In this document: positions 85 to 29,869 of the stretch, piece by piece
How positions within the stretch are numbered: position 1 is the stretch's first letter
Layout of the letters: each line of letters begins with the position of its first letter
NCBI GenBank assembly: GCA_963663995.1
Contig: OY760660.1
Location: 1,890,001-1,922,000 of the forward strand
Origin: Erysipelotrichaceae bacterium
Lineage (GTDB): Bacteria; Bacillota_I; Bacilli_A; Erysipelotrichales; Erysipelotrichaceae
DNA: 32,000 nt
Reading direction: 5' to 3'
Position numbers and translations under genes: made by a program
The notes under the pieces: generated by a model
Databases searched by the model: none
The model's input: the letters and a program-made list of their open reading frames with translations, nothing else
What the model was told of the DNA's origin: nothing

Positions 85-1524
85 ATGAGCGTTCAATATA
101 AAGGCTTAAAAGAAATTAGAGGTCCCCTTATTGTTTTAGATAATATTCAAAATGTAGGTTTTGAAGAGATGGTCGAGATTGAACTTGAAAATGGTTCAAC
201 ACGTACCGGTCGTGTCATTATGATTGAGGGTGAAAAGATTGTTGTTCAAGTTTTTGAAGGAACATCAGGTCTTTCTCAAATCAACACAAAAACTAAACTT
301 TTAGGACACCCAATGCAAATTGCTTTATCAAAAGAAATTTTAGGTCGTGTCTTTAATGGTGCTGGAACAGCTATCGATGGTTTAGGTGAAGTTTTCGCTA
401 ACGAATATGCTGATATTAATGGTAGTGCATTAAATCCTGTTATGCGTAAATACCCACGTAACTATATCAACACAGGTGTTTCTGGCATTGATGGTTTAAA
501 TACATTGATTCGTGGTCAAAAACTACCTATCTTCTCAGGGTCAGGTTTACCACATAATCAATTAGCTGTACAAATTGTTAGACAAGCAAACATTGCTGCT
601 GAAGCAGGACAAGAATTTGCGATTGTTTTCGGCGCTATGGGTGTTAAAAATGACGTCGCTGATTATTTCAGAAGATCATTTGAAGAAACCGGTGTTATGG
701 AAAAAGTTGTTATGTTTATGAACTTATCCAATGACCCAATTATTGAGCGTATTTTAACGCCTCGTTGTGCTTTGTCAGCTGCTGAATACTTAGCCTATCA
801 AGTAGGTATGCATGTTTTGGTTATCTTAACGGATATTACATCTTACTGTGAAGCATTACGTGAATTCTCTTCATCAAAAGAAGAAATTCCTGGACGTAAA
901 GGTTATCCAGGTTATATGTATTCTGACTTAGCATCATTATATGAAAGAGCAGGGATTGTTGAAGGACGTAAAGGTTCTGTAACACAAATTCCTATCTTAA
1001 CCATTCCTAATGACGATATCACTCATCCAGTACCTGATTTAACGGGTTATATTACAGAAGGTCAAATTGTTTTAGATCGTAATTTACATCAAAATGGTTT
1101 GTATCCACCAATTGGTATTCTTCCATCCCTTTCTCGTTTGATGAAAGATGGTATTGGTGAAGGTTATACACGTAAAGATCACTCATCTTTAGCAACACAA
1201 CTCTTTGCATGTTATGCGAAAGTTCAAGATGCTAGATCACTAGCATCCGTTATTGGTGAAGAAGAACTATCAAATGTTGATAGAAAATATATGGCTTATG
1301 GTCGTCTATTTGAAAAACTCTATATCGCTCAAGGTTTTGATACAAATCGTGCGATTGAAGATACGCTTAACTTAGGTTGGCATCTATTATCTTTATTACC
1401 AAAGAAAGAACTCGATCGTATTCCCCAGGAATTAGTAGAAGAGTATTATGATAATCATAATGCGATTGCTTACTTCATGGCCGCTATGGGTGGCGATGTT
1501 GACGAGATACTAAAAGAGGCTTAA
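85..1524 (+). CDS. ntpB: V-type ATP synthase subunit B
   Basis: 479 aa with full-length resemblance to V/A-type ATPase B subunits ([14 protein letters not shown] in place of a P-loop; [22 protein letters not shown]). SD AAGGAGG lies upstream. Confidence 0.95.
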
Positions 1525-1527
1525 CAG

Positions 1528-2157
1528 ATGGCCGCAACAAAAGTATCCCCAACTAAAGGGAATTTACTCCATACAAAAAAATCACTTCAACTAGCTAAAC
1601 TCGGTTATGATCTAATGGATCGTAAGCGTAGCATTTTGATTCGTGAGATGATGATGTTGGTAGATAAAGTTAAACTGTTGCGTGACGAAATTACTGAAGT
1701 ATACGAAGAAGCTTATCTAGCTTTACAAGCTGCCAATATTTCATTAGGGGTAGTTTCTGAAATCTCATCTGCAGTGACTATTGAAACAGGTGTGAATATT
1801 GTCTATCGTTCAGTTATGGGGGTAGAAATCCCGTCTGTTAGTTGCACAGATAAAGCTGTCGAATTTGAATATGGTTTTGAAGATTCAAACTCAAAGTTAG
1901 ATGAGGCAACCATTAAGTTTAACCAAGTTAAGAAAATGACCATCTTGCTCAGTGAAATTGATAATTCAATTTATCGCTTGGCTAGAGCTATTCAAAAAAC
2001 GCAAAAAAGAGCCAATGCTTTACAAAACATTGTTCTTCCAAATTTAAAAGCGGATATTAAATATATTGCTGAAAGTTTAGAAGAAAAAGAACGTGAAGAA
2101 TTTACACGCTTGAAGGTTATTAAGTCACAAAAAGAAAACGCAAAAAATGCAGCATAG
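1528..2157 (+). CDS. ntpD: V-type ATP synthase subunit D
   Basis: 209 aa. The N-terminus PTKGNLLHTKKSLQLAKLGYDLMDRKRSILIRE is typical of V-ATPase D. It starts 3 nt after ntpB. Confidence 0.9.
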   Translation: MAATKVSPTKGNLLHTKKSLQLAKLGYDLMDRKRSILIREMMMLVDKVKLLRDEITEVYEEAYLALQAANISLGVVSEISSAVTIETGVNIVYRSVMGVEIPSVSCTDKAVEFEYGFEDSNSKLDEATIKFNQVKKMTILLSEIDNSIYRLARAIQKTQKRANALQNIVLPNLKADIKYIAESLEEKEREEFTRLKVIKSQKENAKNAA

Positions 2158-2183
2158 CAATATGTTGTATTTTTTTAGGACTT

Positions 2184-2546
2184 TTGAGAATGAGTGCATT
2201 TATATATAGTATGAAGCTCTATCAATTTGAAGAACTAGATACCTTAGTTCGATTCCACTTACGCTTTTACAAAAAGCAAAAAAGTAGAGAAGACTTCTAC
2301 GCTAATCATCTAGAGGTCGGTGAGGCACAAACCGTTAAACCACTAGAAAAAGTCTATGTTTATTGTATTGAACAATCCTTAGAAGAATTGAGTGAAGATG
2401 AACGATTAATTCTGATCAAAGAGAACCTCGAATCAGTCTCAAAAAACTGGTGGATGGAGTACTTTTCTAAGAGTACTTACTATCGAATAAAGTATAAAGC
2501 AATGGACCGTTTTATTCATTGTTTACATTCCGAAAGCATGATATGA
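2184..2546 (+). CDS. hypothetical protein (start uncertain: TTG 2184, ATG 2190 or ATG 2211)
   Basis: ORF only; I recognise no family. It sits between the V-ATPase genes and ptsI. Confidence 0.35.
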   Translation: MRMSAFIYSMKLYQFEELDTLVRFHLRFYKKQKSREDFYANHLEVGEAQTVKPLEKVYVYCIEQSLEELSEDERLILIKENLESVSKNWWMEYFSKSTYYRIKYKAMDRFIHCLHSESMI

Positions 2547-2611
2547 TGTTTGTGAAAATTTCGACTTGAAAACATTTTTTAAGTCGCTATTACAAATCTA
2601 AGGAGAAACAC

Positions 2612-4321
2612 ATGCTAAAAGGTATTGCTGCAAGTAGTGGCGTAGTCGTCGCGAAAGCCTATAAAATGGTTCAACCCGTTTTTGAAATTACAAAGAAATC
2701 TGCCAATGTAGAGGAAGAATTAGCAAAGTTTGAAGCGGCTATTCTAAAGACTCGTGCTGACATCGAAAGCATTAAGGCAAAGGCTGTTGGAAAATTGTCT
2801 GATGAAGAATTAGCGATTTTTGATGCCCACATTATGGTTACAATGGATCCAGAATTCACAGGCCAAATGGAAGAAATGATTAAGAATGATGGCGTTAACG
2901 CTGATTATGCTTGTCATGAAGTATCAAGTATGTTTATCAATATGTTTGATAGTATGGAAGATCCATACTTCAAAGAACGTGCAGCTGACATTAAAGATGT
3001 TAGTTACCGTTTAACTTGCCATATCTTAGGCTTAGAAATGGCTGACTTATCTTTAATTAATGAAAAAGTTATTATCGTTGCCCACGATTTAACTCCATCA
3101 GATACAGCTCAATTAAATAAAGAATTTACTTTAGGTTTCGCTACTGCGATTGGTGGTCGTACATCTCACTCAGCGATTATGGCTAGATCATTAGAAATTC
3201 CTGCAATCGTTGGGATTAATGGCTTATTAGAAGAAATTAATCATGGTGATCTAATCGCTCTTGATGCGATTGATGGTGAACTTTACTTAAATCCTACTGA
3301 AGAAGAAATCAAAGACTTTGAGAAAAAAGCTGAACGTTATGCAAAACTCAAAGAAAGCTTAAAAGTATTAAAAGATGCTGAATCAATCACAACAGATGGA
3401 CATCACGTTGAACTTGTTGCTAATATTGGTACACCTAATGATGTTGATGGCGTATTAAATAACGGTGGTGAAGGTGTTGGTTTATACCGTACTGAATTCC
3501 TTTATATGGATGCTAAAGACTTCCCAACAGAAGATGATCAATATACTGCTTATAAAACAGTTTTAGAGAGAATGGGTAAAAAACCTGTTGTTGTTAGAAC
3601 CTTAGATATCGGTGGAGATAAAGAGTTAAGTTACTTAGACTTACCTCACGAAATGAATCCATTCTTAGGCTATCGTGCGATTCGTTTATGTTTAGATCGT
3701 CCTGAACTATTCAGAACTCAAATTCGTGCACTTCTTCGTGCGAGTGTCCATGGTAATCTATGTATTATGTTCCCAATGATCGCTACATTAGACGAATTCA
3801 GAGCGGCTAAGAAATTCGTTAAAGAAAACGAAGCTGAATTAAAAACTGAAGGCGTTGAAGTCGCTAAATACCAATTAGGTATTATGGTTGAAATTCCTGC
3901 TGCTGCTGTTCTTGCTGATCAATTTGCTAAAGAAGTTGACTTCTTCTCAATTGGAACCAATGACTTGATTCAATATTCTATGGCAGCTGATCGTATGAGT
4001 GAAAAAGTATCTTACCTCTATCAACCCTATAATCCATCATTATTACGTTTAATCAAAATGACCATCGACGGTGCTCATAAAGAAGGTAAATGGTGTGGTA
4101 TGTGTGGTGAAATGGCTGGTGAACCTTATGCTGTTCCTCTACTATTAGGTTTAGGTTTAGATGAATTCTCAATGTCTGCTACCTCAATCTTACAAGCACG
4201 TAAAATCGTTCGTTCATTAAGTTATAAAGAAATGCAAGATTTATCTGCAAAAGCGCTTAACTTAACAACAATGACTGATGTACTTGACCTTGTTAAAGCA
4301 AGCGTAAAGTTCGACGACTAA
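2612..4321 (+). CDS. ptsI: phosphoenolpyruvate-protein phosphotransferase (PTS Enzyme I)
   Basis: 569 aa. Active-site His region [22 protein letters not shown]-terminal PEP-utilising domain ([14 protein letters not shown]). SD AAGGAGA upstream. Confidence 0.97.
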
Positions 4322-4333
4322 TTAAATAAGATG

Positions 4334-4366
4334 AGTCTCACTCGTTAAAAAGTGAGACTTTTTTCT
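4334..4366 (+). terminator. rho-independent terminator after ptsI
   Basis: Perfect 9-bp stem AGTCTCACT/AGTGAGACT with an 8-nt loop, followed by TTTTTTC. Confidence 0.8.
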
Positions 4367-4444
4367 TTGTTTTTTAGCGTTAAAATAGGTGAGCTTTTTA
4401 TCAAATTAAAAAAGTTTTACATGAATTCGCTTACATTTGTGTTT

Positions 4445-13957: not shown

Positions 13958-16507
13958 TTAAGCTCTCAGTTCAATATCGAAGGACTGGGCACGAGTTGGC
14001 TCAATCATAACTTCACCTTGATTGATTAAATTAATAAAGATATCAGCGAGTTTTGGATCAAACTGTGCTCCAGCATTACGTCTAATTTCTTCTATCGCAT
14101 ATTCAACCGTATGATTGGTTTTATAATGACGATCAGATGTTATCGCATCAAAGGCATCAGCTAAACAAATACATCTTGCCCCAAATGGAATATTTTCTGC
14201 ACATAACTTTCTAGGATAACCGCGTCCATCATAGCGTTCATGATGCCCAATAACGGCTGGGATAACTTTACTAAAGGTTGGTAAGTATTTAATGATGGTG
14301 ACAGATAGATCAACATGTCGTTTCATAACTTCAAATTCTTCATTCGTTAAACGATCTGTCTTTGTTAAGATGTGCTCAGGAATACCAATTTTGCCGATAT
14401 CATGAAGCAAGGATGCTTGACGGATAATTTCAATTTCACTCTCACTAGCACCTGCTGCATGAGCAATTGCAGTCGCATATTTGGCAACCCTTTGTGAATG
14501 ACCAAATGTAATATGATCTTTCGCATCAATTGTTGCGGTTAATGCATAAATTGTCGCCCATTGATTTTCACTTAAATCAAATTCAGCGACGGGAGTTTCA
14601 GCTACTTCATTTGTATAAATGGTTGTTCGATTACGACCATTACGTTTTGAATAGATTAAAGCAGTATTTGCATTTTTTAATAAACTGACGGCTTCACTAC
14701 AGGCACTTGGATAGACACATAAGCCTACAGATACAGAAATATAGCGTTCAGTTTCATTGATGTTAGAGACAGATAAACCTTCAATTTGAGTACGTATCTT
14801 TTCAGCTAAATCATAACTTTGTTTAGTATCAGCACCATTCAGAAGGACACCAAAAATATCACCGGCATATCTAAAGACTAAGGTTGACTCATGAACACTA
14901 CGTTTAATTCGATCAGCGACTTTTGTTAGTACGATATCACCTGCAAGATGACCATAAATATCGTTATAAACAGTTAAGGAATCAATACCAAATAGAGTTA
15001 AAGATAAACTTAATGGTTTAGACTCAACTTGTTTGTTGAGAGCTTCCATGAAATATCGATGATTATAAGTTTGGGTCAATGAATCAGTAATAGCCTCAGT
15101 TTGCGTTCTTTCGAAAAGCAAAGCATTGGTGAGGGCCATTGCCGCAGTTGAACACATTAATTCAATAGATTCAATATGGTTAAAGGCTTCAATAGAACGA
15201 TGATCATTATGACATAAAAGCATGAATCCAATTAAATCATGGTGAACTTTAAGAGGGATCGCAACTTCGAATAATAATTCATTTAAAGAATTAAAATCTT
15301 CTTCCCACATGGATTTAAAGAGTGGATGTTGATAGAGGTCTTCGCCACGAATTGGCGTATCATCATTTTCAAACCACTTTGCAAAGGCGTGATTTAAACT
15401 AAATTGTAATCTCTTTCGCTCTAGTTTTTTAGATGATGCATAACATTCATATTTTTCCTGAACAGTATTTTTCAAGTAAAGATGAATCTTACCGTGTTCT
15501 AAAATGGATTGAGACACTCTAATCAATTCTTCACTAATTTCTTTAGCATTTAAATTATTCGCAACAGATTGAGTGAAATTATGGATTTCTGCTTCTCTTT
15601 TGATTTCATCTTTATAAAAGAATTTATTAATAAGTTTATGTAAAATCATAAAAATAGGTTGGAAAATTAGAATACCGATGACAATAGCTACAACTAACAT
15701 GATGGATTCATCAATACCTGTATTTAATGATTGAAAGAAAGCCCATGCGTTATTCAAAAGAACAGATGTGCCAATCGATAATAATACTAAAGCCACACTT
15801 AAAGTTAATGCTTTCGTAATTACAATCTTTAATTCAATAATACGATTTGCGTAAACAGCTTTCATCATTATAAGCACAGCAATCGACCCAGCAAAGAAGT
15901 CAAAAGGATATTTACCAATAACCGGAACTAGATTAATCCCCATCCCAACAAAGATAATAAATAATGAAATGACAATTTGTTTTAAACCTTTATTGATTGA
16001 AATGGATGATTTAATATGATTACGAGCGATGAGGAAGCACGCCATTAATTGAAGGAATATAATGCCATATGAAACATATGCTCCCCACGTTAATGTGTAG
16101 TTAAGTTGTGTATATGGAGCGACTGATAATGTAACCATTTCAGCTTCTGTCGTCACAAAACCTGTAAAAATTAGTCCGAGAATGAAAACATCTAAAAGCC
16201 CCCAAAGGATTAATGGTAACCAACGTTTTCTCTCGATATATACATTTAAGAAAATATAACTAGCATAGGGTAGAACAGCACTACCTAAAATCATCATATG
16301 ATTATAAAAGAGAGTACCAGGGTAAAAATTAAGTTTCATCAAAAGTGATGATGCTGTCCAAATAGCCATTGAGAAAACAACAAAAGTAAAAGATTTTATG
16401 GTGGCATCTTTCTTCGATAAAACCAGAATGCCTAATAAGCTTAAACTTAAAAGGAATGCAATTGAAGGGAGTCCCCAGTAAAATAGTGTTAAACCATAAT
16501 CACTCAT
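13958..16507 (-). CDS. membrane sensor protein: N-terminal polytopic (7TM-type) domain, GAF-like linker, degenerate GGDEF (AGDIF), HD-GYP c-di-GMP phosphodiesterase domain
   Basis: 849 aa. About 290 aa of TM helices. GGDEF-fold blocks (DSLTQTYNHRYF, GIDSLTVYNDIYGHLAGD), but the signature reads RYAGDIFG. HD-GYP signature is intact (HSQRVA, LLHDIGKIGIP, HHERYDGRGYP). ATGA overlap with the upstream GH3 gene. Confidence 0.9.
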   Translation of the reverse strand: MSDYGLTLFYWGLPSIAFLLSLSLLGILVLSKKDATIKSFTFVVFSMAIWTASSLLMKLNFYPGTLFYNHMMILGSAVLPYASYIFLNVYIERKRWLPLILWGLLDVFILGLIFTGFVTTEAEMVTLSVAPYTQLNYTLTWGAYVSYGIIFLQLMACFLIARNHIKSSISINKGLKQIVISLFIIFVGMGINLVPVIGKYPFDFFAGSIAVLIMMKAVYANRIIELKIVITKALTLSVALVLLSIGTSVLLNNAWAFFQSLNTGIDESIMLVVAIVIGILIFQPIFMILHKLINKFFYKDEIKREAEIHNFTQSVANNLNAKEISEELIRVSQSILEHGKIHLYLKNTVQEKYECYASSKKLERKRLQFSLNHAFAKWFENDDTPIRGEDLYQHPLFKSMWEEDFNSLNELLFEVAIPLKVHHDLIGFMLLCHNDHRSIEAFNHIESIELMCSTAAMALTNALLFERTQTEAITDSLTQTYNHRYFMEALNKQVESKPLSLSLTLFGIDSLTVYNDIYGHLAGDIVLTKVADRIKRSVHESTLVFRYAGDIFGVLLNGADTKQSYDLAEKIRTQIEGLSVSNINETERYISVSVGLCVYPSACSEAVSLLKNANTALIYSKRNGRNRTTIYTNEVAETPVAEFDLSENQWATIYALTATIDAKDHITFGHSQRVAKYATAIAHAAGASESEIEIIRQASLLHDIGKIGIPEHILTKTDRLTNEEFEVMKRHVDLSVTIIKYLPTFSKVIPAVIGHHERYDGRGYPRKLCAENIPFGARCICLADAFDAITSDRHYKTNHTVEYAIEEIRRNAGAQFDPKLADIFINLINQGEVMIEPTRAQSFDIELRA

Positions 16508-19980: not shown

Positions 19981-20373
19981 ATGGGAAGACCAAAAGGAAG
20001 CACAGGAAAAAAATTACATAAATGGACAGTTGAAGAAAAATTAGAGATCGTTAATAAACATTTAATAGATCACATGAGTTATGAGCAAATTAAGATTAAC
20101 TATCAAGTTGGTTTAGCACAAATACATAACTGGGTAAAACAATATCACGAGAACGGAGAAGAAGGACTTCTCCCAAAAGAAAATAAACGTAATATAATGG
20201 CTCATCTATATCGAAAGAAAAACCTAAACAAACTTGAGAAATTAGAACTTGAGAACTTCAAATTAAAACTAGAAGTTGAACGATTAAAAAAAGGTTACAC
20301 AGTGAAAGGAGTTGGTTCAAACAAGGAATACGTTCCTACATCCAAGACGAATATCAAATCATCAAAGAATTAA
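19981..20373 (+). CDS. IS3-family transposase OrfA (HTH + leucine-zipper region)
   Basis: 130 aa. N-terminal HTH (WTVEEKLEIV...GLAQIHNWVKQY) and a heptad-Leu region (LEKLELENFKLKLEVERLKK). The slippery run lies near the 3' part. Confidence 0.85.
   Translation: MGRPKGSTGKKLHKWTVEEKLEIVNKHLIDHMSYEQIKINYQVGLAQIHNWVKQYHENGEEGLLPKENKRNIMAHLYRKKNLNKLEKLELENFKLKLEVERLKKGYTVKGVGSNKEYVPTSKTNIKSSKN
20286..20293 (+). promoter_or_regulatory. programmed -1 ribosomal frameshift site (A AAA AAA G)
   Basis: The run of seven A then G is read in the orfA frame as TTA AAA AAA GGT. Frame -1 is open from here to 21227 and encodes the DDE domain. Confidence 0.7.
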
Positions 20374-21227
20374 GTAATGAGTATTCAGTTGGATTTTTAT
20401 GTGGAGTATTAGATGTCAGTCGTAGTGGTTATTATAAATGGTTAAAACGTTTAGACACACTCAATCGGCATGAACAGAATAGAGAAGATCTTATTAAACT
20501 TATCGAAGAGATACATACAGAACATCCATCATACGGTTATCACGATATAACGGCAGTCATCACTACGCGTACAGGTTGGAAATTATCTGCATTAACGGTA
20601 CATAAAGCCTGTAAAGCGATTGGCGTTAAATCAGAAACTAAGCATTACAAGTGGAAGAAACCAGGAGAAGAACACGTCACTTATAAGAACGTCGTTTCAG
20701 GAAACTGGGAGGTATCTCGACCCTTAGAAATCGTGACGAGCGATATGACTGTACTCACCCATAGAGGAAAACAATATGAGTGGACATTCATCGTTGATGT
20801 GTTCAATAACTCCATCATCGCATCATCACTTAGTTCAAGACGAAATGATAATTCTACCTATTACCATTGTCTTGATCAACTCATTCACATCATCAAAAAA
20901 GAAGAATATTCCGAACCCATCATTTTCCACAGTGACCAAGGTGCAGTTTATTCTTCAAAAGGCTTCCAAGAAGCTCACAAAAATTATAACATTATTCGAT
21001 CTATGTCGCGCGTAGGCACACCAACTGATAACGCAGTTATAGAATCACTTAATGGTTGGATCAAAGCTGAAATAAAATGTGATTATAATCTTAAAGAATG
21101 GGATTCACTTGAAACTTTCATTGATCAATACATAGAGTTCTTTAATAATGAAAGACCAGCTTACAAACTCCAATATAAAACCCCTAACCAATTCTTAATT
21201 GATCAAGGGTTCACTGTTTTTTATTAA
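20292..21227 (+). CDS. IS3-family transposase OrfB part (DDE integrase-like catalytic domain; expressed as OrfAB fusion)
   Basis: My manual translation of frame 3 is open from 20283 onward: ...RLHSERSWFKQGIRSYIQDEYQIIKELSNEYSVGFLCGVLDVSRSGYYKWLKR... It then continues into the tracked ORF. DDE triad candidates are TSDMT, HSDQG and ESLNGW. Confidence 0.85.
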   Translation, partial: RLHSERSWFKQGIRSYIQDEYQIIKELSNEYSVGFLCGVLDVSRSGYYKWLKRLDTLNRHEQNREDLIKLIEEIHTEHPSYGYHDITAVITTRTGWKLSALTVHKACKAIGVKSETKHYKWKKPGEEHVTYKNVVSGNWEVSRPLEIVTSDMTVLTHRGKQYEWTFIVDVFNNSIIASSLSSRRNDNSTYYHCLDQLIHIIKKEEYSEPIIFHSDQGAVYSSKGFQEAHKNYNIIRSMSRVGTPTDNAVIESLNGWIKAEIKCDYNLKEWDSLETFIDQYIEFFNNERPAYKLQYKTPNQFLIDQGFTVFY

Positions 21228-21272: not shown

Positions 21273-22316
21273 TTATTTGAATAATTCAGGATCGAAGGCG
21301 TGACGGACAGCTTCTTCTTTACTAATAATATTTGATTCAAGTAATTTCCTTAAACTTTCGTCCATCGTGATCATGCCATCATCTTTGGAAACTCGGATGG
21401 TCGCATTTAATTGATGTGTTTTACCTTCACGTATTTGATTACGTATGGCGGTGTTGTTGACCATTACTTCAAAGGCAGGGTGAATTTGTTGATCAAGAGT
21501 TGGGACGAGTTGTTGTGATATAACAGTTTGAAGAACCATTGCTAGTTGGATTCGAACTTGGTGTTGTTGTTCAGATGGGAAGACATCAACGATTCGATCA
21601 ATGGTATTACTTGCCCCTAATGTATGAAGAGTTGAGAAAACTAAGTGGCCAGTTTCTGCGGCCGTTAGGGCTAAAGAAATTGTTTCTAAATCACGCATTT
21701 CTCCAACAAATAATACGTCTGGAGATTGTCTTAATGCAGATCTTAAAGCGATGGCTGTGCTTTCACAGTCTGTTCCAATTTCTCTTTGTGTGACAACTGA
21801 TTGATTATGTTTAAATAAGAATTCAATCGGATCATCAATCGTAATAATATGACCTTTTCTTGATTTATTGATTTCAGTTAGAAGCATAGCCATTGTTGTC
21901 GATTTACCACAACCTGCTGGACCACTAACAATCACTAAACCTTTGCTTAATTTCGCAAAACGCATAACATTTTCAGGTACATGCATAATACTAGGCTCAG
22001 GAATATCGAAACGCACAATTCTTAGAACAGCTGCTAAACTCGAACGTTGTGTATAAACATTCGCTCTAAATCTTGCGACATGAGGTATAGAGAATGAAAA
22101 GTCATCATCTCCATTTGTATTCACTTTATCCATAGAACGATTAGCTACTTGATAAATTGTCTTAATCAATTCATAGGTATCATCTGGCATTAAGCGAGCA
22201 CCATCTAATTGTTTGAGCTCGTTTTTTATTTTTAAAGCTAAACTAGTACCAGCAACAATAAAAAGATCGGATGCTCCCAGCAACATAGCTTTTTCAATTA
22301 GTTCATTTAAATTCAT
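21273..22316 (-). CDS. pilT: PilT-family type IV filament ATPase (retraction-class hexameric ATPase)
   Basis: 347 aa, collinear with PilT. GASDLFIVAG, Walker A GPAGCGKST, DDPIEF, GEMRDLETISLALTAAETGHLVFSTLHT and a PilT-type AIRNQIRE motif. It lacks the long N-terminal domains of PilB/GspE. Confidence 0.9.
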   Translation of the reverse strand: MNLNELIEKAMLLGASDLFIVAGTSLALKIKNELKQLDGARLMPDDTYELIKTIYQVANRSMDKVNTNGDDDFSFSIPHVARFRANVYTQRSSLAAVLRIVRFDIPEPSIMHVPENVMRFAKLSKGLVIVSGPAGCGKSTTMAMLLTEINKSRKGHIITIDDPIEFLFKHNQSVVTQREIGTDCESTAIALRSALRQSPDVLFVGEMRDLETISLALTAAETGHLVFSTLHTLGASNTIDRIVDVFPSEQQHQVRIQLAMVLQTVISQQLVPTLDQQIHPAFEVMVNNTAIRNQIREGKTHQLNATIRVSKDDGMITMDESLRKLLESNIISKEEAVRHAFDPELFK

Positions 22317-22759
22317 TATTGACCTCCATATACAGGATCACCATTGAGTGAATAATCTTGAGTATTTATAATACTTAAACGTTTTGATTCCAAAATTAAA
22401 TTTTTATTTTCATGATTAATATCTAATATTACTTTTACCATTTGTGTTTCACTGACAGTCTCGATTGTGATTACATCTTCTTCTTTATCGTAATTCACCA
22501 TCTCTAAATTGTCTATCTTCATTAAGAATTCTTCAAAACTTGACTGTGATTGATAGATTTTATTAACTTCAGCGATTTGCAGATCAGTCTCTTTTTCAAT
22601 CATATATGAATCAGCTACAAAATCCATACTTTTCAAAATGCTGTTATGTGTTTGTCTAACATCGACAAGTAAGACAGATACAACGGAATAAACTAAGATT
22701 AAAATTAGAATAGAGAGTAAGGTTGGTAATCCAAAAGGATTAAATCCACGTTTCTTCAT
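22316..22759 (-). CDS. small bitopic protein, ComGG/minor-pseudopilin-like N-terminus (KKRGFNPFG...)
   Basis: Start set at ATG 22759 (ATGA overlap with the upstream stop). MKKRGFNPFGLPTLLSILILILVY has a basic-Gly-Phe junction followed by a hydrophobic helix but no Glu at +5. The stop overlaps the pilT start (TAATG). Confidence 0.5.
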   Translation of the reverse strand: MKKRGFNPFGLPTLLSILILILVYSVVSVLLVDVRQTHNSILKSMDFVADSYMIEKETDLQIAEVNKIYQSQSSFEEFLMKIDNLEMVNYDKEEDVITIETVSETQMVKVILDINHENKNLILESKRLSIINTQDYSLNGDPVYGGQ

Positions 22760-23118
22760 CGTGACACCCCCACATCCCATGATGTGATCACTTGACCCTC
22801 ATCATCTTTTAGGCTAATACTAATCCAATTGAAATCATTGGTATTTTCTTTATTAAGATAAATGGTATAGATAGGATTTTGATTTGTTCTATTACCACTA
22901 ACATCAAACATAATCGGAACTAATGAACTTTCAGTATTAAGTGTCTCTGATATATTCATCATCTCTGCTTGAATTTTAGATAAAGCCAAATTTTCCTGAT
23001 GTGTTTTATTAGCCAGTAAAAGAAGATAAAATGCAAGGAACAAACCAAAACTTAAAAAGATAACATTCAATATAATCTCTAACATAAAGTTCTTTTGAGG
23101 TTTATTCATATGATTCAC
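22756..23118 (-). CDS. small bitopic protein (120 aa) with an atypical N-terminal ...KNFMLEIILNVIF... helix
   Basis: One N-terminal TM helix, with FMLE reminiscent of but not matching G/FTLxE. Translationally coupled on both sides. The start could be ATG 23109. Confidence 0.5.
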   Translation of the reverse strand: MNHMNKPQKNFMLEIILNVIFLSFGLFLAFYLLLLANKTHQENLALSKIQAEMMNISETLNTESSLVPIMFDVSGNRTNQNPIYTIYLNKENTNDFNWISISLKDDEGQVITSWDVGVSR

Positions 23119-23542
23119 CAGCTTGTACTCGATAATTCAATGTGATGACTTCATTTGCTTCATTAATGTAAGTTATTGTTACTAATTGATTGTCTATTTC
23201 AACTTTAAAATCTTGAACAAAAGCGAGCTCTTCACCATTTCCATAGCGAACAGGATCAATCGAAACTTGTTCCATCAATGATTGATTTTCTTCATAGACT
23301 AAAAGGTAGTAACCATTTAGATCAAAAATTAAGGTTGAATCTTTAACTGACAGTGAGTCTAAAATATCATTTTGTTTGAATCGATTATTAAAATATAATC
23401 GAATACTTCGATCATTTAACTCAATGTCACTTTGAGCTTGAATTTCTTGTGTTAAAGAAGCACCAAAACTAATCAGTAAAGTCGAGGCAAGAACAAGAAC
23501 TAAAATCATCAAAAGGGATAAGGCTGTACTATTTTTTTTCAT
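23102..23542 (-). CDS. small bitopic protein (146 aa), possible minor pseudopilin/assembly factor
   Basis: N-terminal MKKNSTALSLLMILVLVLASTLL helix and a beta-rich C-terminal part. Its size matches ComGD-class proteins, but there is no canonical prepilin motif. It shares a 1-nt overlap (TAATG) with the upstream gene. Confidence 0.5.
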   Translation of the reverse strand: MKKNSTALSLLMILVLVLASTLLISFGASLTQEIQAQSDIELNDRSIRLYFNNRFKQNDILDSLSVKDSTLIFDLNGYYLLVYEENQSLMEQVSIDPVRYGNGEELAFVQDFKVEIDNQLVTITYINEANEVITLNYRVQAGESYE

Positions 23543-23832
23543 TAGTTTTCCCCTCCCAAACGATAGATGTGGATAGTAGGTCTAAGGTTAGAAGCAAAAA
23601 CTTTATAGGTCACAACAAACTTATCATCGACAACTACACCATAATAATTGATTAAATATTCAAGTTGAGCAGGGTAAAAACCTTCTTGTGCATAACAAAG
23701 CGTTAGCGCATTTTGTATCGCTTTTTCTAAACTTTGTTGATTAAGGGCAACTTGATCATTTTCCATTCTACTGATTAGCAGAAAGCTAAGAAGACAAGCA
23801 GCGATAAAAGTTGTTACTGAAGCTTTTTTCAT
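23542..23832 (-). CDS. small pilin-like protein (96 aa) lacking the canonical prepilin cleavage motif
   Basis: An N-terminal hydrophobic helix continues into an amphipathic helix, followed by ...YAQEGFYPAQLEYLINYYGV..., which resembles the alpha-beta loop region of ComGC/major pilins (EGxxPxxLxxLxxxGY). There is no G-F-T-L-x-E. Confidence 0.45.
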   Translation of the reverse strand: MKKASVTTFIAACLLSFLLISRMENDQVALNQQSLEKAIQNALTLCYAQEGFYPAQLEYLINYYGVVVDDKFVVTYKVFASNLRPTIHIYRLGGEN

Positions 23833-23835
23833 TTT

Positions 23836-24858
23836 TTATCCTAAGGTAGACATCACATTTAATAAGGGTAAAATCATTGAGAACACAATCGCAAAAACCA
23901 TTGCAGTCAAACTAGTGATTAACCAAGGTTCAATTCTATTTAAGCTAGAGTTTAATTGATTTTGTGCTCTTTGATTAAGTAAATAAGATAAATCATCAAG
24001 AGCATTTTCAAGTTGTCCAGCTTTTGCGGCAATGTTTAACGTACTTAAATCTATTGATTCATAAAGGGTATTGTTTAACAAGAGTTCATATAAACCTTCA
24101 GAAGGATCAAGTTTAGCTTTAGCTTTGTTGAGTTTTTCTTCAAATTTAACACTTGTATCATTCGCTTTGACCATACTAAGTGCACTTCGATTATCAATAC
24201 CGCCAGATAAAGCTATATACGCCATTGATGTATAATAAGCAACTTGTGAAGTTTCATATGCTTTTGGGAATAATCTTAATAATCGAGTATCCCAAGAAGG
24301 TTGACTTTCTGGTTTTTTTTGATGTTTGATTTCTCCTAGGATAAACCAAAGAGCGATTAAAGCATAGCTAGTCATTAAAGCTATACTAAAGCCTTTTAAA
24401 GCATATAAGAAAGCACGTAAGCTTGCACTTTGAGCGATACCAAGTTGAGTAAAGAGATTTTGAAATATTGGTAGAATGGTGAAAGACATTAAAGTTAAAA
24501 TTATCCCAAAGATCGCTAATAAAATTAATGGCAGGCTCAAGATTTCTTTTAAGAACTGTTGAAGTTCAGATTGACGAGTAAAATGTTTCGCCATTTGTTT
24601 AAAGAGTTTTTCTTCCTGTCCTACTTTTTCAGCAATTACTAATGCATCAATGAAATAGTGTGGGAAAGCAGCATCTTGTTTGAAAACATAACTAAGACTT
24701 GGATTTTCACTAAAATGTGTTTGCCAAGATTTATAGTCATAGATTTCACTTTTTTCAAGTAAACTTAAGCCTTTATCTAGACTAGTACCTGAAGCATACA
24801 AATAACTAAGTTGTTGACATAAAGAGGCAAGTTCTTGTGCAGTATATTGTTTTCTCAT
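23836..24858 (-). CDS. GspF/PilC/ComGB-family type IV filament platform protein
   Basis: 340 aa with two T2SSF-like repeats (cytoplasmic helical bundle then TM). N-terminus ELASLCQQLSYLYASGTSLDKGLSLL; C-terminal TM ILPLLNVMSTLG. The size is ComGB-like. Confidence 0.8.
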   Translation of the reverse strand: MRKQYTAQELASLCQQLSYLYASGTSLDKGLSLLEKSEIYDYKSWQTHFSENPSLSYVFKQDAAFPHYFIDALVIAEKVGQEEKLFKQMAKHFTRQSELQQFLKEILSLPLILLAIFGIILTLMSFTILPIFQNLFTQLGIAQSASLRAFLYALKGFSIALMTSYALIALWFILGEIKHQKKPESQPSWDTRLLRLFPKAYETSQVAYYTSMAYIALSGGIDNRSALSMVKANDTSVKFEEKLNKAKAKLDPSEGLYELLLNNTLYESIDLSTLNIAAKAGQLENALDDLSYLLNQRAQNQLNSSLNRIEPWLITSLTAMVFAIVFSMILPLLNVMSTLG

Positions 24859-24866
24859 AAATCTCC

Positions 24867-25805
24867 TTAATAACGATCTTGGTCTTGATATGACCCATCA
24901 TATTCGCCCATTGAATCAAAAGTTGGATCAACTCTTTTCCATTCATCACTTGCAAAATAAATACTTGGATTTATCCATCCTTGATCATCTAAATAAACTT
25001 CAACCCATGCATGATAACCAACATCCGTCATACCCGTGATAATTCGAGTTGGTATATGTTGTGCTCTAAGCATAGCCGTCATTAATGCAGCATAATCAAA
25101 ACAAATTCCTTTTTGTTGGATATATGTTTCGTCAATGATAGGAAGAATGAATGTTGACTTGGCTACTTCAGCTTTATCGTAATCATAAGTTATATTTTCA
25201 GTGATATAAGTGTATATTTCATAGACTCTTAATAAATCACTATTAGCGTCCTGCGTTAAATTGAATGATTCTAATACAGCTTTTGTATTCGCATCATAGT
25301 CAACCATTTGATTGGGATAAATGTAAGGACTATTTTCATCTTCTAAGTTAACAGTGATATTGGTAGAGGCAAGAATGCTGTAACTTGTACCTTCAATGTT
25401 TTTAAGCGCTCGAATGGTATAGTCGCCATTGCCCAAATGCATAGGAACAATCACATATTCATTCGCATGAAGATCATAAGTATAAGTTTGGTCATTTAGA
25501 ATAACTTGAACTTTTTGTTTGGAAGTACTATCACTCGTTTTGATACTAACATATCCAAAATTCGCATTTGAATAATCAATGCTTATCCCGTTGTTTTCAA
25601 AAAGGGAAGTTCCAGGTTGAGTAGGTAAAAGTAAGTCAGAAAGTTTATACGCTTCAGAGGGTGTTCCCTCTTCTGGATAAGCGCTTGTACTTGCTTGACT
25701 TGGACTTGTTCTTTCTTGAATTGTAGCAGGCTTATCACTACTGCATGCACTTAAGAAAATAACAATGCAGAATAGAATAAGTATATGGCTTATGGGTTTA
25801 TTCAT
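24867..25805 (-). CDS. transglutaminase-like (Cys-His-Asp core) lipoprotein
   Basis: Lipobox FLSAC. The C-terminal core GICFDYAALMTAMLRAQHIPTRIITG...GYHAWVEVYLDDQGWINP...VDPT matches the transglutaminase-core/cysteine-protease fold. Confidence 0.85.
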   Translation of the reverse strand: MNKPISHILILFCIVIFLSACSSDKPATIQERTSPSQASTSAYPEEGTPSEAYKLSDLLLPTQPGTSLFENNGISIDYSNANFGYVSIKTSDSTSKQKVQVILNDQTYTYDLHANEYVIVPMHLGNGDYTIRALKNIEGTSYSILASTNITVNLEDENSPYIYPNQMVDYDANTKAVLESFNLTQDANSDLLRVYEIYTYITENITYDYDKAEVAKSTFILPIIDETYIQQKGICFDYAALMTAMLRAQHIPTRIITGMTDVGYHAWVEVYLDDQGWINPSIYFASDEWKRVDPTFDSMGEYDGSYQDQDRY

Positions 25806-25873: not shown

Positions 25874-28800
25874 TTATAGTTCAATAATTGTATTGTATTC
25901 TTCGTCTTGTTCAGCAGGGATTAGAACAGTGTGAACTAAATGACCATGAAGCACGAAGTTAACGGTTAGATTACCTAAGTGTTTTGCGAGACGTTTGTAG
26001 ATTGTTACATCAATTTTGGCAAGATCTACTAAGTTTTTATCATTAAGATCAACAATGAATACAGTTTGATCATCATCAGGTTTTGATAGACGACGTCGTA
26101 ATGTTTTTTCTGTTCCATCCTTAGTGATTAATGTGTATCTAATATTAGGTCTAATAAAGGCTAGAAGAAGTGGAAGTAATCCAAGTAACCAGTATAACCA
26201 ACTAAAGTCCATTGGTAATGCGGCTAGAGGCGTTTCCTCTGGTTCTTCAACCAAGATAACACCTTGTGTCACATCAATCACAACTGAAGCAGTATTTGAA
26301 TCAAGTTCACCATCATTGGCGATGAAGCTAAAGCTATCATTACCAACGAAGCCATCGTTAGGCGTATAAGTAAATGAACCATCATCATTGAAGACTAATG
26401 TACCATTCGAGACGGATGATACTAAAGCAAATGTTAAGGCATCTCCATCAGCATCACTTGCACTTGCTTGACCACTAATAGCTGTTTCAAATTCAGTTGA
26501 GTATGTTCCTGCATTAGCAACTGGAGCTGTATTCAAGGCAGCTAGAGGAGTAGGTGTAGGAACGACTGTAACTGTAACTGGAGGTGTAGTAGGAGGAGTG
26601 GTTGGAGGTGTAACTGGAGGAGCAGGAGGAGCAGTAACAGTAATCGTAACTGTAACTACATTAGAATCATCTTCACCATCATTGGCATGATAAGTAAAGG
26701 TATCTGTTCCAACAAATCCAGCAGTAGGTGTATAAGTAAATGAACCATCAGCGCCTAATACTAAGGCACCATTGACAACATTAACATTTAGAACAGCTGT
26801 TAATGAATCACCTTCAACATCAGTATCATTAGCTAAGACACCAGCAGCAGCGATACTTAAGCTTGCAGTATTAACGACTGTATAAGCTTCAGCAACGGCT
26901 ACAGGGGCATCATTCACTGGAGTTACTGTAATATAAATTGTAGCAACTTCAGAAGTATCAACACCATCACTTACGGTGTAAGTGAATTGATCGTCCCCAA
27001 CGTAATTAGCGTTAGGTGTATAAGTAATTGCTGATCCTGTTCCACTTAGAACACCATTGGTAGGAGCAGTTGTGAGGAATGTTAATTCATCTTCATCAAC
27101 GTCTTCACCAAAGAGGGTAATAAGAAGTGCTGTATCTTCAGGAGTTGTTAACTCTTGACCTTCAGCTACAGGAACATCATTGATAGGATTAACAGTGATT
27201 TCTACAGTTGCGCTAGCACTAATGTTTCCATCAGTAATGCTGTAATCGAAACTATCTAAACCATTGAAATTAGCAGCAGGTGTATAAGTGAAAGAACCAT
27301 CAATATTCATGGATACACTACCACCATTAACACTTGTTGCATCATATGCACTAATTTCTAATGCATCACCATCAACGTCTGAATCATTGTCTATGACTCC
27401 ATTAACAGCCAATACAACCAGAGGCGTATCTTCATCAGTTGAATATTCATCATCAACAGCAACAGGAGCATCATTAATGTTTGTTACATTAATGGTAATC
27501 GTAGCTGCTACTGAACTTAGAACACCATCAAATGTTGTAAAGGTGAATGAATCTTGACCGACAAAATCAGTGTTTGGAGTATAAGTAATTTGATCATCAT
27601 TTAGAATGCTTAAAGTACCATTTGTAGGTTGAGAAGCGATAGCGAATGTAATGCTATCCCCATCAATATCTGAACCAGTTAAGGTAATGAGTAAAGCTGT
27701 TTCTTCAGCTGTATCTACAGTTTGATCATTAGCAGTAGGAGCATCATTTATTGGGTTAACAGCGATTTCAACAATTGCTATATCCGTTAAACTACCATCA
27801 CTAACTGTGTATGTGAATGTATCACTATCTAATCCCACTCCATTAAAGTTTGCAGCAGGTGTATATGTAAATGTACCATCTAAAGCCATCGATACAGTAC
27901 CACCGTTGGTTGTTGTAGTGTCATAAGCACTTACAAATAAACTATCACTATTAGCATCAGTGTCATTGGCTAGAACACTATTAGCAATAAGTACTGTTAA
28001 TGGAGTATCTTCATCAGTAGTATATTCATCATCAACTGCAACTGGAGCAGTATTATTAACTGAAATATAAACAGTAGCTATGTTGGAGTTACTTGTTCCA
28101 TCATAAGCCATATATGTGAAATGGTCTGTACCATTGAAACCTGAATTTGAAGTATAAGTGAATGATCCATCAGCATTTAATGATAATGTACCATTTGAAA
28201 CATTATCAACTAATATAGCAGATAGAGAACTACCTTCAACATCAGTATCATTTCCTAAAATACCAGGAGCTGCTATTGATAGTTCAACAAGTTGAGCAGC
28301 AGTATAATTATCATCTGTGGCAACAGGAGCATCATTGACTGCATTAATAGTAATATTGACAGTCGCTGTATCACTTCCACCATTTCCATCACTGATTGTA
28401 TAAGTATAAGAATCAGTACCATTAAAATCAGAAGCAGGTGTAAAAGTAATTGTATTATCAGCATTAATTACTACTGTACCGTTTGATCCTTGTGTTACTG
28501 AAGAGATTGTTAAAACATCACCATCAATATCAGAATCATTAGCTAATACATTAGTTGTAACTGCAGTATCTTCATCAGTAAAATCTGAATCATCTACAGC
28601 AACAGGAGCATCGTTAATCGGTGTAACTGTAATGTTTACAGTACCAGTAACTGATGTTGTACCATCGCTTAATGTGTATGTAAATGAATCATTCCCATTA
28701 AAATCATCAAAAGGTTCATAACTAAATGATCCGTCAGATCCTAAATAAGTTAGGTCACCATGACTTGGATTAGTACCAGCACTTATTGTTAAAGGATCAC

Positions 28801-29869
28801 CATTTGGATCACTGTCATTAATTAATAAATGATTTACATCAGAATTTGTAACTTTTAATAATCCATCTTCGTCTACGGTATAAGTATCTGTGCCAGCCAC
28901 AGGACTGTTGTTTGTAACAAGAATAGTAACAGTTGCTTCATTAGAATCAGCAGTACCATCATTTGCTATATATTTGAAAGTAACAGTTCCGTCAAATCCC
29001 ACTGAAGGAGTATAATCAAAAGAACCATTACTATTAAGTATTAATGTTCCATTTGCGGGATCACTTACTTTTGTCGATGTAAGTACTGTTCCTAAATCAA
29101 CATCACTATCATTTCCTAAAACACCACTTGCAACAATTGATAATGTTGTGTTTTTAACCAATGTGTAAGAATCATCAACAGCTACTGGTACATCATTTAC
29201 AGGTGTTACTGTAATTGTGACAGTAGCAGTATTTGAATCGACATGTCCATCATTTGCTGTGTATGTAAAACTATCTGTTCCATTATAATTTGCGTTTGGT
29301 GTATATGTGAATGAACCATCAGCATTTAATGACAAACTACCATTAGTGGTATTGCTAACAAGAACCGCTGTTAAAGGGTCAACATCTCCACTTACATCAT
29401 TAGCTAGAACACCTGGCATAGAAATTGTTAATGGAGTATCTTCAAGTGTTGCATACGTATCAGGATTAGCTATCGGAACTGTATTTATACGATAAACTGC
29501 TGAAATACCAACGAATTTCACATTAGTATTTGCAGGTTGTTCATATATTACAACCTCGACAAAGAATCCCAAAAATACATAACCTGAATATTCAAGTGCT
29601 GTAACTTCTGGGAAATTATCTCGAACGAAATTATCGGCATTTGATCCAACAGTTAGACCAGAACTTGTCCATAAAGTATCTAGTTCATTTAAATAATGAT
29701 ATTCATAATTGCCATTTCCTTGACCATTATTTATTGAGTCATCAATACTAATATGAATTTCTAATGTTGGAGAATTTTGAGAAGCTAATATTGGTGTTAT
29801 GTTCCAGGAACTAAACGTAAGTGTGAAAACCATTAAGATTTTCGAAATTCTAGTAATTGTTTTTATCAT
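25874..29869 (-). CDS. giant surface protein: signal peptide, ~100-aa N-domain, 11 cadherin/Ig-like (VCBS / Big_9-type) repeats, P/T-rich linker, C-terminal TM helix and 92-aa cytoplasmic tail
   Basis: 1331 aa. The repeats follow the pattern NDAPVAVDDxYTTDEDTPL...VLANDTDVDGD.LT...NGT...NADGSFTYTP...F.GTDSFTYT..DG...SN.ATV.ITV.P. SD AGGAGGA lies 7 nt upstream. Confidence 0.85.
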   Translation of the reverse strand: MIKTITRISKILMVFTLTFSSWNITPILASQNSPTLEIHISIDDSINNGQGNGNYEYHYLNELDTLWTSSGLTVGSNADNFVRDNFPEVTALEYSGYVFLGFFVEVVIYEQPANTNVKFVGISAVYRINTVPIANPDTYATLEDTPLTISMPGVLANDVSGDVDPLTAVLVSNTTNGSLSLNADGSFTYTPNANYNGTDSFTYTANDGHVDSNTATVTITVTPVNDVPVAVDDSYTLVKNTTLSIVASGVLGNDSDVDLGTVLTSTKVSDPANGTLILNSNGSFDYTPSVGFDGTVTFKYIANDGTADSNEATVTILVTNNSPVAGTDTYTVDEDGLLKVTNSDVNHLLINDSDPNGDPLTISAGTNPSHGDLTYLGSDGSFSYEPFDDFNGNDSFTYTLSDGTTSVTGTVNITVTPINDAPVAVDDSDFTDEDTAVTTNVLANDSDIDGDVLTISSVTQGSNGTVVINADNTITFTPASDFNGTDSYTYTISDGNGGSDTATVNITINAVNDAPVATDDNYTAAQLVELSIAAPGILGNDTDVEGSSLSAILVDNVSNGTLSLNADGSFTYTSNSGFNGTDHFTYMAYDGTSNSNIATVYISVNNTAPVAVDDEYTTDEDTPLTVLIANSVLANDTDANSDSLFVSAYDTTTTNGGTVSMALDGTFTYTPAANFNGVGLDSDTFTYTVSDGSLTDIAIVEIAVNPINDAPTANDQTVDTAEETALLITLTGSDIDGDSITFAIASQPTNGTLSILNDDQITYTPNTDFVGQDSFTFTTFDGVLSSVAATITINVTNINDAPVAVDDEYSTDEDTPLVVLAVNGVIDNDSDVDGDALEISAYDATSVNGGSVSMNIDGSFTYTPAANFNGLDSFDYSITDGNISASATVEITVNPINDVPVAEGQELTTPEDTALLITLFGEDVDEDELTFLTTAPTNGVLSGTGSAITYTPNANYVGDDQFTYTVSDGVDTSEVATIYITVTPVNDAPVAVAEAYTVVNTASLSIAAAGVLANDTDVEGDSLTAVLNVNVVNGALVLGADGSFTYTPTAGFVGTDTFTYHANDGEDDSNVVTVTITVTAPPAPPVTPPTTPPTTPPVTVTVVPTPTPLAALNTAPVANAGTYSTEFETAISGQASASDADGDALTFALVSSVSNGTLVFNDDGSFTYTPNDGFVGNDSFSFIANDGELDSNTASVVIDVTQGVILVEEPEETPLAALPMDFSWLYWLLGLLPLLLAFIRPNIRYTLITKDGTEKTLRRRLSKPDDDQTVFIVDLNDKNLVDLAKIDVTIYKRLAKHLGNLTVNFVLHGHLVHTVLIPAEQDEEYNTIIEL
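26270..29485 (-). repeat. in-frame tandem array of ~95-100-codon divergent repeats (11 units; a P/T linker precedes the last)
   Basis: I counted repeat-initiating (N)D/T-(A/V/S)P(V/I/T)A motifs at 11 positions. The DNA copies are diverged rather than identical. Confidence 0.8.

Follow-up and report, generated by a model that had tools for sequence, protein, structure and literature searches.

Results

The stretch of DNA analysed here, 32,000 nucleotides of an Erysipelotrichaceae bacterium (GenBank assembly GCA_963663995.1, contig OY760660.1, forward-strand positions 1,890,001 to 1,922,000; hereafter the window), carries an eight-gene cassette in which four small genes, designated S1 to S4, lie between a gene for a GspF-type platform protein and a gene for a PilT-family ATPase, all in one minus-strand operon (Table 1). 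A preliminary description of the sequence had picked out S1 to S4 as encoding pilin-sized proteins with N-terminal helices, and all four open reading frames (ORFs) proved to be real, each on the minus strand. Successive genes overlap (TAATG, ATGAATAA and ATGA) and a ribosome-binding site is present at every start; the overlaps suggest translational coupling. The maximal ORF of S3 (22756-23118) would give 120 aa from a GTG start, and the conserved ATG at 23109 is the start in the source annotation as well.

Table 1. Genes of the cassette, with positions in the window and main features of the products.
Feature	Position	Strand	Description
S1	23542..23832	(-)	96 aa, start MKKASVTT; bitopic; N-terminal membrane helix variable, head invariant
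S2	23102..23542	(-)	146 aa, start MKKNSTAL; divergent DUF4860 protein with well-supported pilin descent; Gly(-1) and Glu(+5) both lost
S3	22756..23109	(-)	117 aa from the conserved ATG at 23109 (MNKPQKNFMLE)
S4	22316..22759	(-)	147 aa, start MKKRGFNPFG; maximal ORF 154 aa
PilT-family hexameric ATPase	21273..22316	(-)	347 aa; sole T2SSE-type ATPase of the cassette
GspF/PilC/ComGB-like platform	23836..24858	(-)	340 aa, strongly diverged; PF00482
Transglutaminase-core lipoprotein	24867..25805	(-)	312 aa, extracellular, catalytic triad intact; PF01841
Giant cadherin/Big_9-repeat surface protein	25874..29869	(-)	1331 aa; signal peptide, C-terminal membrane helix and tail

The motif G-F-x-x-x-E is absent from all four small ORFs, whatever start is chosen. 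Since the ORFs listed are maximal, upstream extension is impossible and no canonical prepilin motif emerges from alternative starts, which bears out the earlier observation that none of the proteins places a Glu at +5 after a Gly. A Glu at +5, a frequent but not obligatory feature of type 4 pilins, has an aligned equivalent in S3 and is missing from S1, S2 and S4. It had also been stated that none of the four carries a class III-like signal (a Gly or Ala before 20-25 hydrophobic residues), the feature that defines type 4 pilins (IPR012902, PF07963, TIGR02532). This holds for S1 to S3 but not for S4, in which the invariant Gly10 precedes ~22 hydrophobic residues and so makes a formal signal, without Glu5. 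A regular-expression search in six frames of the 32-kb window for a class III-type motif followed by a hydrophobic run returned nothing, and the GxGDxK motif of prepilin peptidases was likewise absent from the window. Against Pfam and NCBIfam, S1 to S4 and their orthologues gave weak, scattered matches (GspJ, E 0.03; ComGG, E 0.16), apart from the match of S2 to DUF4860.

S2 and the DUF4860 family

All seven S2 orthologues match PF16152 (DUF4860; best E 3.8e-7), and several members of the S2 family bear a precomputed PF16152 label; S2 of the window itself scores 15.5 bits, under the Pfam gathering cut-off of 25. A search of 1.84 billion representative proteins with the S2 profile found 1160 relatives (clusters), and the profile recovers canonical members of DUF4860 at E 1e-10 to 1e-15. 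Canonical leaders in the family include RKG/YSFIE, LRG/SSSLE, KG/SSNFE, NG/NAVVE and KG/QHNVD (here and below, the slash follows Gly(-1)). The N-termini of DUF4860 proteins are graded: some are canonical, many retain the acidic residue only ([KR]HxI[DE]), and the window clade has neither element. An acidic residue at the start of the helix was found in 64 of 137 full-length representatives outside the window clade, with a Gly five residues upstream in 10 of those 64. Retention of the acidic residue with loss of the Gly across DUF4860 indicates that loss of the prepilin-peptidase site is widespread and extends beyond the window clade. Many members show [KR]-H-x-[IV]-[DE] at the helix start, the acidic residue being kept and the Gly lost.

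One DUF4860 protein, P0146 (86 bits), falls just short of the thresholds of N_methyl (21.1 vs 21.2) and TIGR02532 (16.2 vs 16.3 bits). A metagenome scan with P0146 returned only an unrelated high-GC locus of the type II secretion system (T2SS) type, L013 (Ga0315294_10039978, 1145-4432), in which GspG and a small pseudopilin are encoded together with proteins resembling GspJ (leader TRG/FTFIEILFVMALLSL) and GspK; the match spans the pilin N-terminal helix only and shows how canonical the P0146 leader is. A tblastn search of plasmids with a DUF4860 protein gave no match. Our literature search found no paper mentioning DUF4860, and the pilin nature and operon context of the family were worked out in the present analysis.

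Structure models were obtained with AlphaFold2 for S1 and S2. The S2 model, based on 56 homologues, has a mean predicted local distance difference test score (pLDDT) of 89.8 and a predicted template modelling (TM) score of 0.74, and consists of an N-terminal helix (residues 2-57, 56 residues) and eight beta-strands, a predicted arrangement that corresponds to the "lollipop" of pilins, in which a long helix is packed on a beta-sheet head. The top Foldseek matches in the PDB were XcpW (5bw0_C, 3nje), EpsJ (2ret) and XcpVWX (6utu), with probabilities of 0.82-1.00; the PDB chains matched lack the membrane part of the helix. Structure prediction and Foldseek had been proposed as a check on the pilin-like nature of the four proteins: the best matches of the S2 model are GspJ-type pseudopilins, a likeness that is suggestive, not conclusive, and S1 gave nothing significant. 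Sequence-profile searches of the PDB with S2, S3 and S4 gave no match.

Relatives of S1 to S4 in distant loci

Three distant loci (L014, L015 and L016) have a platform gene and four small genes in the same order as the window. L014 encodes a PilT-family ATPase (438 bits), a platform protein of 398 aa, a 107-aa protein, a DUF4860 protein (LRG/SSSLE) and, in the S3 and S4 positions, proteins of 186 aa (KYRG/FTLYE) and 248 aa (KRKG/ISTIV). L016 encodes a PilT-family ATPase (445 bits), a platform protein, a 113-aa protein and a DUF4860 protein (NG/NAVVE), together with proteins of 178 aa (NG/FTLMEI) and 219 aa (KKG/ATSIL), a transglutaminase and a 533-aa protein. In L015, genes for a transglutaminase lipoprotein and the platform accompany those for a 117-aa protein (CYAIEGFYPPNLDYL), a DUF4860 protein (RHIID) and, in the S3 and S4 positions, proteins of 200 aa (..SLFLIE) and 164 aa (NIG/LPIGT). 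Leaders of the G/xxxxE or KG/ type are present at the S2, S3 and S4 positions in two of the three loci (L014 and L016), and the S3-type protein of L016 exceeds the TIGR02532 cut-off (18.4 vs 16.3 bits) and matches ComGE at E 2e-5.

Hidden Markov models (HMMs) of the window families, used with hmmsearch on 204 ORFs, selected the positional counterparts in these loci. The S1 model did so at E 5e-14 (L014), 7e-25 (L015) and 3e-14 (L016), and the S2 model at ~1e-18 to 1e-20; E values were 0.003-0.011 for S3 and 0.006-0.011 for S4. Only in L016 did the S4 model rank another protein, that of the S1 type, marginally above its counterpart (E 0.0098 vs 0.011). Profile-profile comparison by hhalign gave probabilities of 99.5, 99.2, 76.7 and 84.8 % on the diagonal for S1 to S4, and at most 18 % off it; the S3 match to the proteins in the S3 position of L014-L016 has E 2e-5 over 93 columns, and the corresponding S4 match E 7e-6. 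These diagonal matches argue that S1 to S4 of the window correspond one to one, as relatives, to a four-protein set whose positions 2-4 are filled by recognisable prepilins in less derived systems.

The N-termini of S3 and S4 can be read against these relatives. In the orthologue alignment, S3 begins [KR]-x-[FL]-x-x-E-I-x-L-N-V with an invariant Glu, which aligns with Glu+5 of E. coli GspJ, of the L014 protein (KYRG/FTLYE) and of the L016 counterpart; position -1 is Lys, Arg, His or Gln in 9 of 9 orthologues. The FMLE of S3 had been called off-register. Its Glu is indeed present, but in register with Glu+5, the departure being the non-Gly residue at -1. S4 has an invariant F-G-[LIV]-P-T-L-L motif that contains Gly10, which aligns with Gly(-1) of L014 (MKRKG/ISTIV). 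The basic-Gly-Phe junction previously emphasised in S4 involves a different residue, Gly5, which alternates between Gly and Gln among orthologues and was rejected as a cleavage site because it is unconserved. Judged by sequence, S4 may be cleaved, and the predicted site is after Gly10. Its membrane helix is the best conserved of the four, and conservation within S3 and within S4 peaks in the N-terminal helix, as it does in pilins.

Nearly every S4 orthologue ends in N-x-Q-D-Y-x-x-x-G-x-P-V-Y-G-G (22316-22360, minus strand). We speculate that the Gln of this tail could be a transglutaminase substrate, or that the tail could supply a strand for beta-complementation with a partner.

The S1 family is marked by an invariant head, IQxxLxxCYAQEGFYPAxLxYL...FASNxRP. 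To judge from the sequences, S1 homologues lack a class III leader in every locus seen, even where the neighbouring proteins bear one. The predicted structure of S1 (pLDDT 82) comprises a 49-residue helix (2-50), a short helix (57-63) and a beta-hairpin. The best, non-significant Foldseek superposition in the PDB was on the Thermus pilin PilA4 (TM 0.47, E 8.4); a profile search of PDB sequences returned TcpA only, also without significance (E 0.85), over alpha1 and the alpha-beta loop. Among E. coli GspG to GspM, the best hhalign partner of S1 was GspG, a weak match (31 %) over the same elements. The likeness to ComGC-type pilins that had been suggested for the 96-aa protein did not hold up: neither sequence profiles nor Foldseek gave a ComGC match and the predicted head contains a beta-hairpin, and a ComGC-like S1 was therefore rejected. 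S1 can be described as pilin-shaped in its predicted structure, pilin descent not being established for this protein.

Both S1 and S2 have a basic start followed by a poorly conserved hydrophobic helix, with no conserved Gly, Ala or Glu. Mean column conservation over residues 1-30 is 0.45 for S1 and 0.51 for S2, below that of the rest of each protein. Since the N-terminal helix is the least conserved part of S1 and S2, these helices are probably plain anchors.

The preliminary description had left two options, namely pseudopilins that do without a PilD-type peptidase and membrane assembly factors of a different kind. In the second case, S1 to S4 would be bitopic assembly or alignment factors (PilN/PilO/GspL/GspM-like), resembling pilins by their single N-terminal helix only. 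The absence of matches between window proteins and pilin HMMs is in keeping with this, as are the lack of a class III leader in every S1 homologue and the use of PilMNO-type bitopic proteins by monoderm type IV pili (T4P) (PMC10191384). S2, however, is homologous to leader-bearing DUF4860 proteins and its model fits GspJ-type pseudopilins, not the ferredoxin-like folds of PilO and GspM; the 50 best Foldseek matches of the S1 and of the S2 model include no PilN/PilO-type fold. For S3 and S4 the matching proteins bear G/FTL.E and KG/ leaders, and hhalign probabilities for GspL and GspM are at most 1.1 % for all four families, compared with up to 31 % for GspG and GspJ. Unrelated assembly factors are therefore an unlikely explanation, which survives in part for S1 only. 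The first option is favoured by the leader-bearing members of the S2 family, the predicted GspJ-like lollipop of S2 and the leader-bearing counterparts of S3 and S4, and pilin descent of S2 to S4 is well supported.

Conservation of the cassette

The gene order adhesin, transglutaminase, platform, S1, S2, S3, S4 and PilT, with the adhesin gene as the first of the conserved cassette, recurs in at least eight independent contigs or genomes. The cassette loci are those of an Erysipelotrichaceae metagenome-assembled genome (L001) and of the metagenome contigs L002-L005, L007 and L009-L011. Recurrence of the S1-S4 order with its platform and PilT flanks in at least eight loci is more than chance would produce. 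The L001 platform is 78 % identical to that of the window, and a scan of genome contigs yielded this one relative; an exact look-up of the window platform protein gave no match. In a collection of 5.8 billion proteins, 24 homologues of S1 and 91 of S2 were found, and the most divergent S2 homologues (21-22 % identity to S2 of the window) still lie within the same cassette. The gene beyond pilT is unrelated in every cassette locus that reaches that far, and is on the opposite strand where shown.

This conservation bears on the idea that a pilus operon is decaying here, with the cassette as its remnant and four non-functional genes. Loss of the processing motifs, the great divergence of the platform and an IS3-like remnant adjoining pilT would all suit such an origin. 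Against it, each of the eight genes is intact, and synteny extends over lineages in which the small proteins are only ~22-45 % identical; invariant blocks persist in S1 (CYAQEGFYPA), S2, S3 (the Glu) and S4 (FGxPTL and QDY..GxPVYGG); the ATPase motifs and the transglutaminase triad are intact; and the insertion sequence (IS) remnant, which is not part of the operon, is missing in L001. Because the motifs are strongly conserved across distant lineages, pseudogene decay was rejected and is, in our estimate, very improbable.

Components expected of a complete pilus system were sought around the same loci. No PilB/GspE-type ATPase, Peptidase_A24 gene or canonical pilin gene was found within 10 kb in the cassette loci. 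Peptidase_A24 was absent from the window and from 10 kb around 11 loci, and a PilB/GspE-type ATPase was absent within 10 kb in every locus, L014-L016 included. The type IVa pilus set is represented by PilT and the platform only, in the cassette, the 32-kb window and all syntenic loci. The ComGA-type ATPase and ComGC that would identify a Com pseudopilus are both missing.

Motor, platform and surface proteins

The window ATPase scores 395 bits against TIGR01420 (cut-off 319), compared with 132 bits against ComGA (cut-off 300) and 115 bits against PilB. With GPAGCGKS (Walker A) at residue 132 and AIRNQIRE at 290, it is a true member of the PilT/PilU family. A PilT-family protein is the linked ATPase in the window, L014 and L016.

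The platform protein matches PF00482 in two stretches (E 2.7e-17), scores 83-92 bits against GspF/ComGB models, far under their cut-offs, and lacks ~55 N-terminal residues of the GspF model. GspF scores step down from 255-286 bits in L014 and L016 through 212 in L015 to 83 in the window. As the platform scores fall in step, the whole machine appears to have diverged, beyond the pilin-like proteins.

A transglutaminase-core protein with an intact triad is encoded in the window, in L015 (7374-8399) and in L016 (12301-13101). The window protein matches PF01841 at E 3e-22 and has the lipobox LSAC and the triad Cys235/His265/Asp293; it is a lipoprotein in the window and L015, and in L016 shows an N-terminal signal sequence only. 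The association of transglutaminase, platform and four small genes in three very different gene orders suggests that a surface transglutaminase or protease is functionally linked to the pilin-like set.

The adhesin of the window has 11 Big_9/Cadherin repeats. Its length varies between loci from 1129 to 1968 aa, with a variable number of repeats, and the membrane helix and a cytoplasmic tail of ~95 aa are kept in 8 of 8 loci with a readable C-terminus. The tail (25874-26260, minus strand; RPNI.YTL...RRRLAKPD...YKRLAKH...TVNF) has no Pfam or NCBIfam match and is a candidate docking site for the PilT/platform machine.

Two adjacent ORFs just downstream of pilT (19981-21227, plus strand; 130 and 164 aa) resemble by eye the orfA and orfB of an IS3-type transposase, orfB being truncated; in L001 the site is occupied by an unrelated 110-aa gene. 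About 5 kb from the cassette, a gene at 13958-16507 (minus strand) encodes an 849-aa multi-pass membrane protein whose C-terminal part appears by eye to be GGDEF and HD-GYP (cyclic-di-GMP turnover). A GGDEF-EAL gene is found near the cassette in L011 as well.

Discussion

Taken together, these data make it fairly probable that S1 to S4 are a co-translated set of four type IV pilin-derived membrane proteins, encoded in a Firmicute cassette with a GspF-type platform and a PilT-family ATPase, and that they form an anchored complex. The cleavage signal appears to have decayed in the Erysipelotrichaceae clade of the window, and from this we infer that S1 to S3 are not cleaved. Uncut, the basic N-termini of S1 to S3 would prevent extraction of these proteins from the membrane into a free filament. 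S1 to S4 would instead sit as a short membrane-anchored complex atop the platform, like the initiation or tip complex of minor pilins in T4P and T2SS, with S4 as a cap without Glu5; minor pilins form an initiation complex that is capped by a subunit lacking Glu5 (PMC10191384). The PilT hexamer would drive this complex through the platform by turning or pulling it, and the movement would be passed on to the transglutaminase-core lipoprotein and the giant adhesin outside. With three of the four proteins lacking a cleavable site and PilT as the sole linked motor, an anchored complex is the simplest reading. We hypothesize that it acts without a filament and with PilT alone.

Several points weigh against such a complex. 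The window proteins fall short of every N_methyl, TIGR02532, ComG and Gsp HMM, their orthologues likewise leave N_methyl and TIGR02532 unmatched, and the Foldseek matches of S2, at E 0.04-0.3 and TM 0.36-0.44, are not significant alone. The link of S3 and S4 to pilins consists of the N-terminal motif, operon position and moderate profile scores, and that of the adhesin and transglutaminase to the machine is one of gene neighbourhood alone. S4 may well be cleaved. A peptidase, a PilB-type ATPase and a major pilin may lie elsewhere in the genome, in which case the cassette could give an ordinary pilus its minor pilins and retraction motor.

The last point leads to the main alternative, in which S1 to S4 serve as functional minor pilins in a conventional, retractile pilus of the type IV or Com kind whose major pilin, extension ATPase and peptidase are encoded elsewhere. 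The peptidase would have relaxed specificity, S4 at the least being cut (after Gly10) and the others perhaps as well, and the cassette would provide a priming or tip complex, a retraction motor and a tip-associated adhesin. The alignment of the invariant Gly of S4 with Gly(-1) of canonical relatives and the retention of the Glu in S3 accord with this, and so does PilT as the retraction motor of type IVa pili (PMC10191384). Prepilin peptidase genes often lie apart from those of the pilins and serve more than one system (PMC6668835), and the clear leaders in L014 and L016 imply that a peptidase is supplied there from outside the locus. Operons that combine minor pilins with a large adhesin are also known, as in PilY1/PilC with PilIJK-type pilins (PMC13533445). 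Class III leaders, however, end in Gly or Ala (PMC10191384), whereas position -1 of S3 is one of the four residues named above in every orthologue and no small residue is conserved ahead of the helix in S1 or S2. Subunits that pack in a filament core differ from S1 and S2, whose N-terminal helices show little conservation; a module that merely served another pilus would have no use for a platform protein of its own, such as the cassette encodes; and the adhesin is itself anchored in the membrane, with a cytoplasmic tail that is conserved. On balance we find the minor-pilin explanation doubtful, although it deserves serious consideration.

If the anchored-complex reading is extended to the wider DUF4860 operons, these and the cassette could represent an undescribed Firmicute class of type IV filament-derived machine with a PilT motor alone and no free filament, in which a peptidase-independent stub moves an adhesin. 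We offer this "retraction-only" engine for adhesion or surface remodelling as a tentative possibility. Platform rotation would exert force or movement on the membrane-anchored adhesin through the four-protein stub, and the surface transglutaminase or protease would act on the stub or the adhesin by cross-linking or processing; a candidate substrate would be the invariant Gln of QDY..GxPVYGG in S4.

Type IV filament machines are defined by pilins with class III signals, a prepilin peptidase and an extension ATPase. The window lineage seems to have kept a platform and four pilin-derived subunits, with PilT as the sole linked motor, while the processing signal was progressively lost. Related operons still show intermediate stages and offer a natural series on the need for the leader, Gly(-1) and Glu5. 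The analysis also gives a context to DUF4860, a family of >1,000 sequence clusters with no literature, and leads us to expect that a PilT motor, a surface enzyme of transglutaminase fold and giant adhesins are functionally linked in Erysipelotrichaceae and other Firmicutes. The type IV filament classes described so far all have a prepilin peptidase and an assembly ATPase (PMC6668835), and systems with PilT only are not among them (PMC6668835, PMC10191384). Our literature search found no description of a system combining a transglutaminase, PilT and a platform protein (PilC).

Comparison with known systems places the cassette between several of them. With the type IVa pilus it shares a true PilT, recognisable by the AIRNxIRE motif, and a PilC/GspF-type platform; it differs in that the cassette and its surroundings lack PilB, PilD, PilMNO and a major pilin. 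The monoderm Com pseudopilus (ComGA-GG) is similarly encoded by a compact operon with a platform gene and several pilin-like genes of similar size, and relatives of S3 weakly match ComGE and ComGF. The cassette ATPase, however, is PilT and not ComGA (395 vs 132 bits), there is no ComGC-type major pilin, and Com operons contain nothing equivalent to the transglutaminase and adhesin genes. Within DUF4860, an uncharacterised Firmicute family, S2 is a divergent member whose subfamily lacks both the acidic residue kept by about half of the family and the Gly kept by a minority.

The minor complexes of T2SS and T4P (GspH-I-J-K, PilH-I-J-K/FimU-PilVWX and ComGD-GG) differ in that three of the four cassette proteins lack a Gly/Ala(-1) site, PilT is the only motor, and neither a major pilin nor an extension ATPase nor a prepilin peptidase is encoded in the cassette, whose proteins leave pilin HMMs unmatched. 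They are alike in having four small proteins, each with a hydrophobic N-terminal helix and a small head, whose genes stand in a row beside the platform gene. S4 lacks Glu5, like GspK; the S2 model is nearest to GspJ/XcpW; relatives of S3 match ComGE and ComGF; and an adhesin gene is part of the operon, like PilY1.

S1 to S4 may further be a bacterial counterpart to archaeal FlaF and FlaG, as pilin-like proteins turned into fixed parts of a machine. FlaF has an incomplete archaellin domain and no class III signal peptide, and is a membrane-anchored, non-filament component (PMC4425475). The archaellum differs in being an archaeal rotary machine with the FlaI ATPase and S-layer binding, and there is no sequence relationship, so that the analogy is one of mechanism only. 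What the two have in common are pilin- or archaellin-derived, monotopic, anchored parts that do without a class III signal peptide (PMC4425475).

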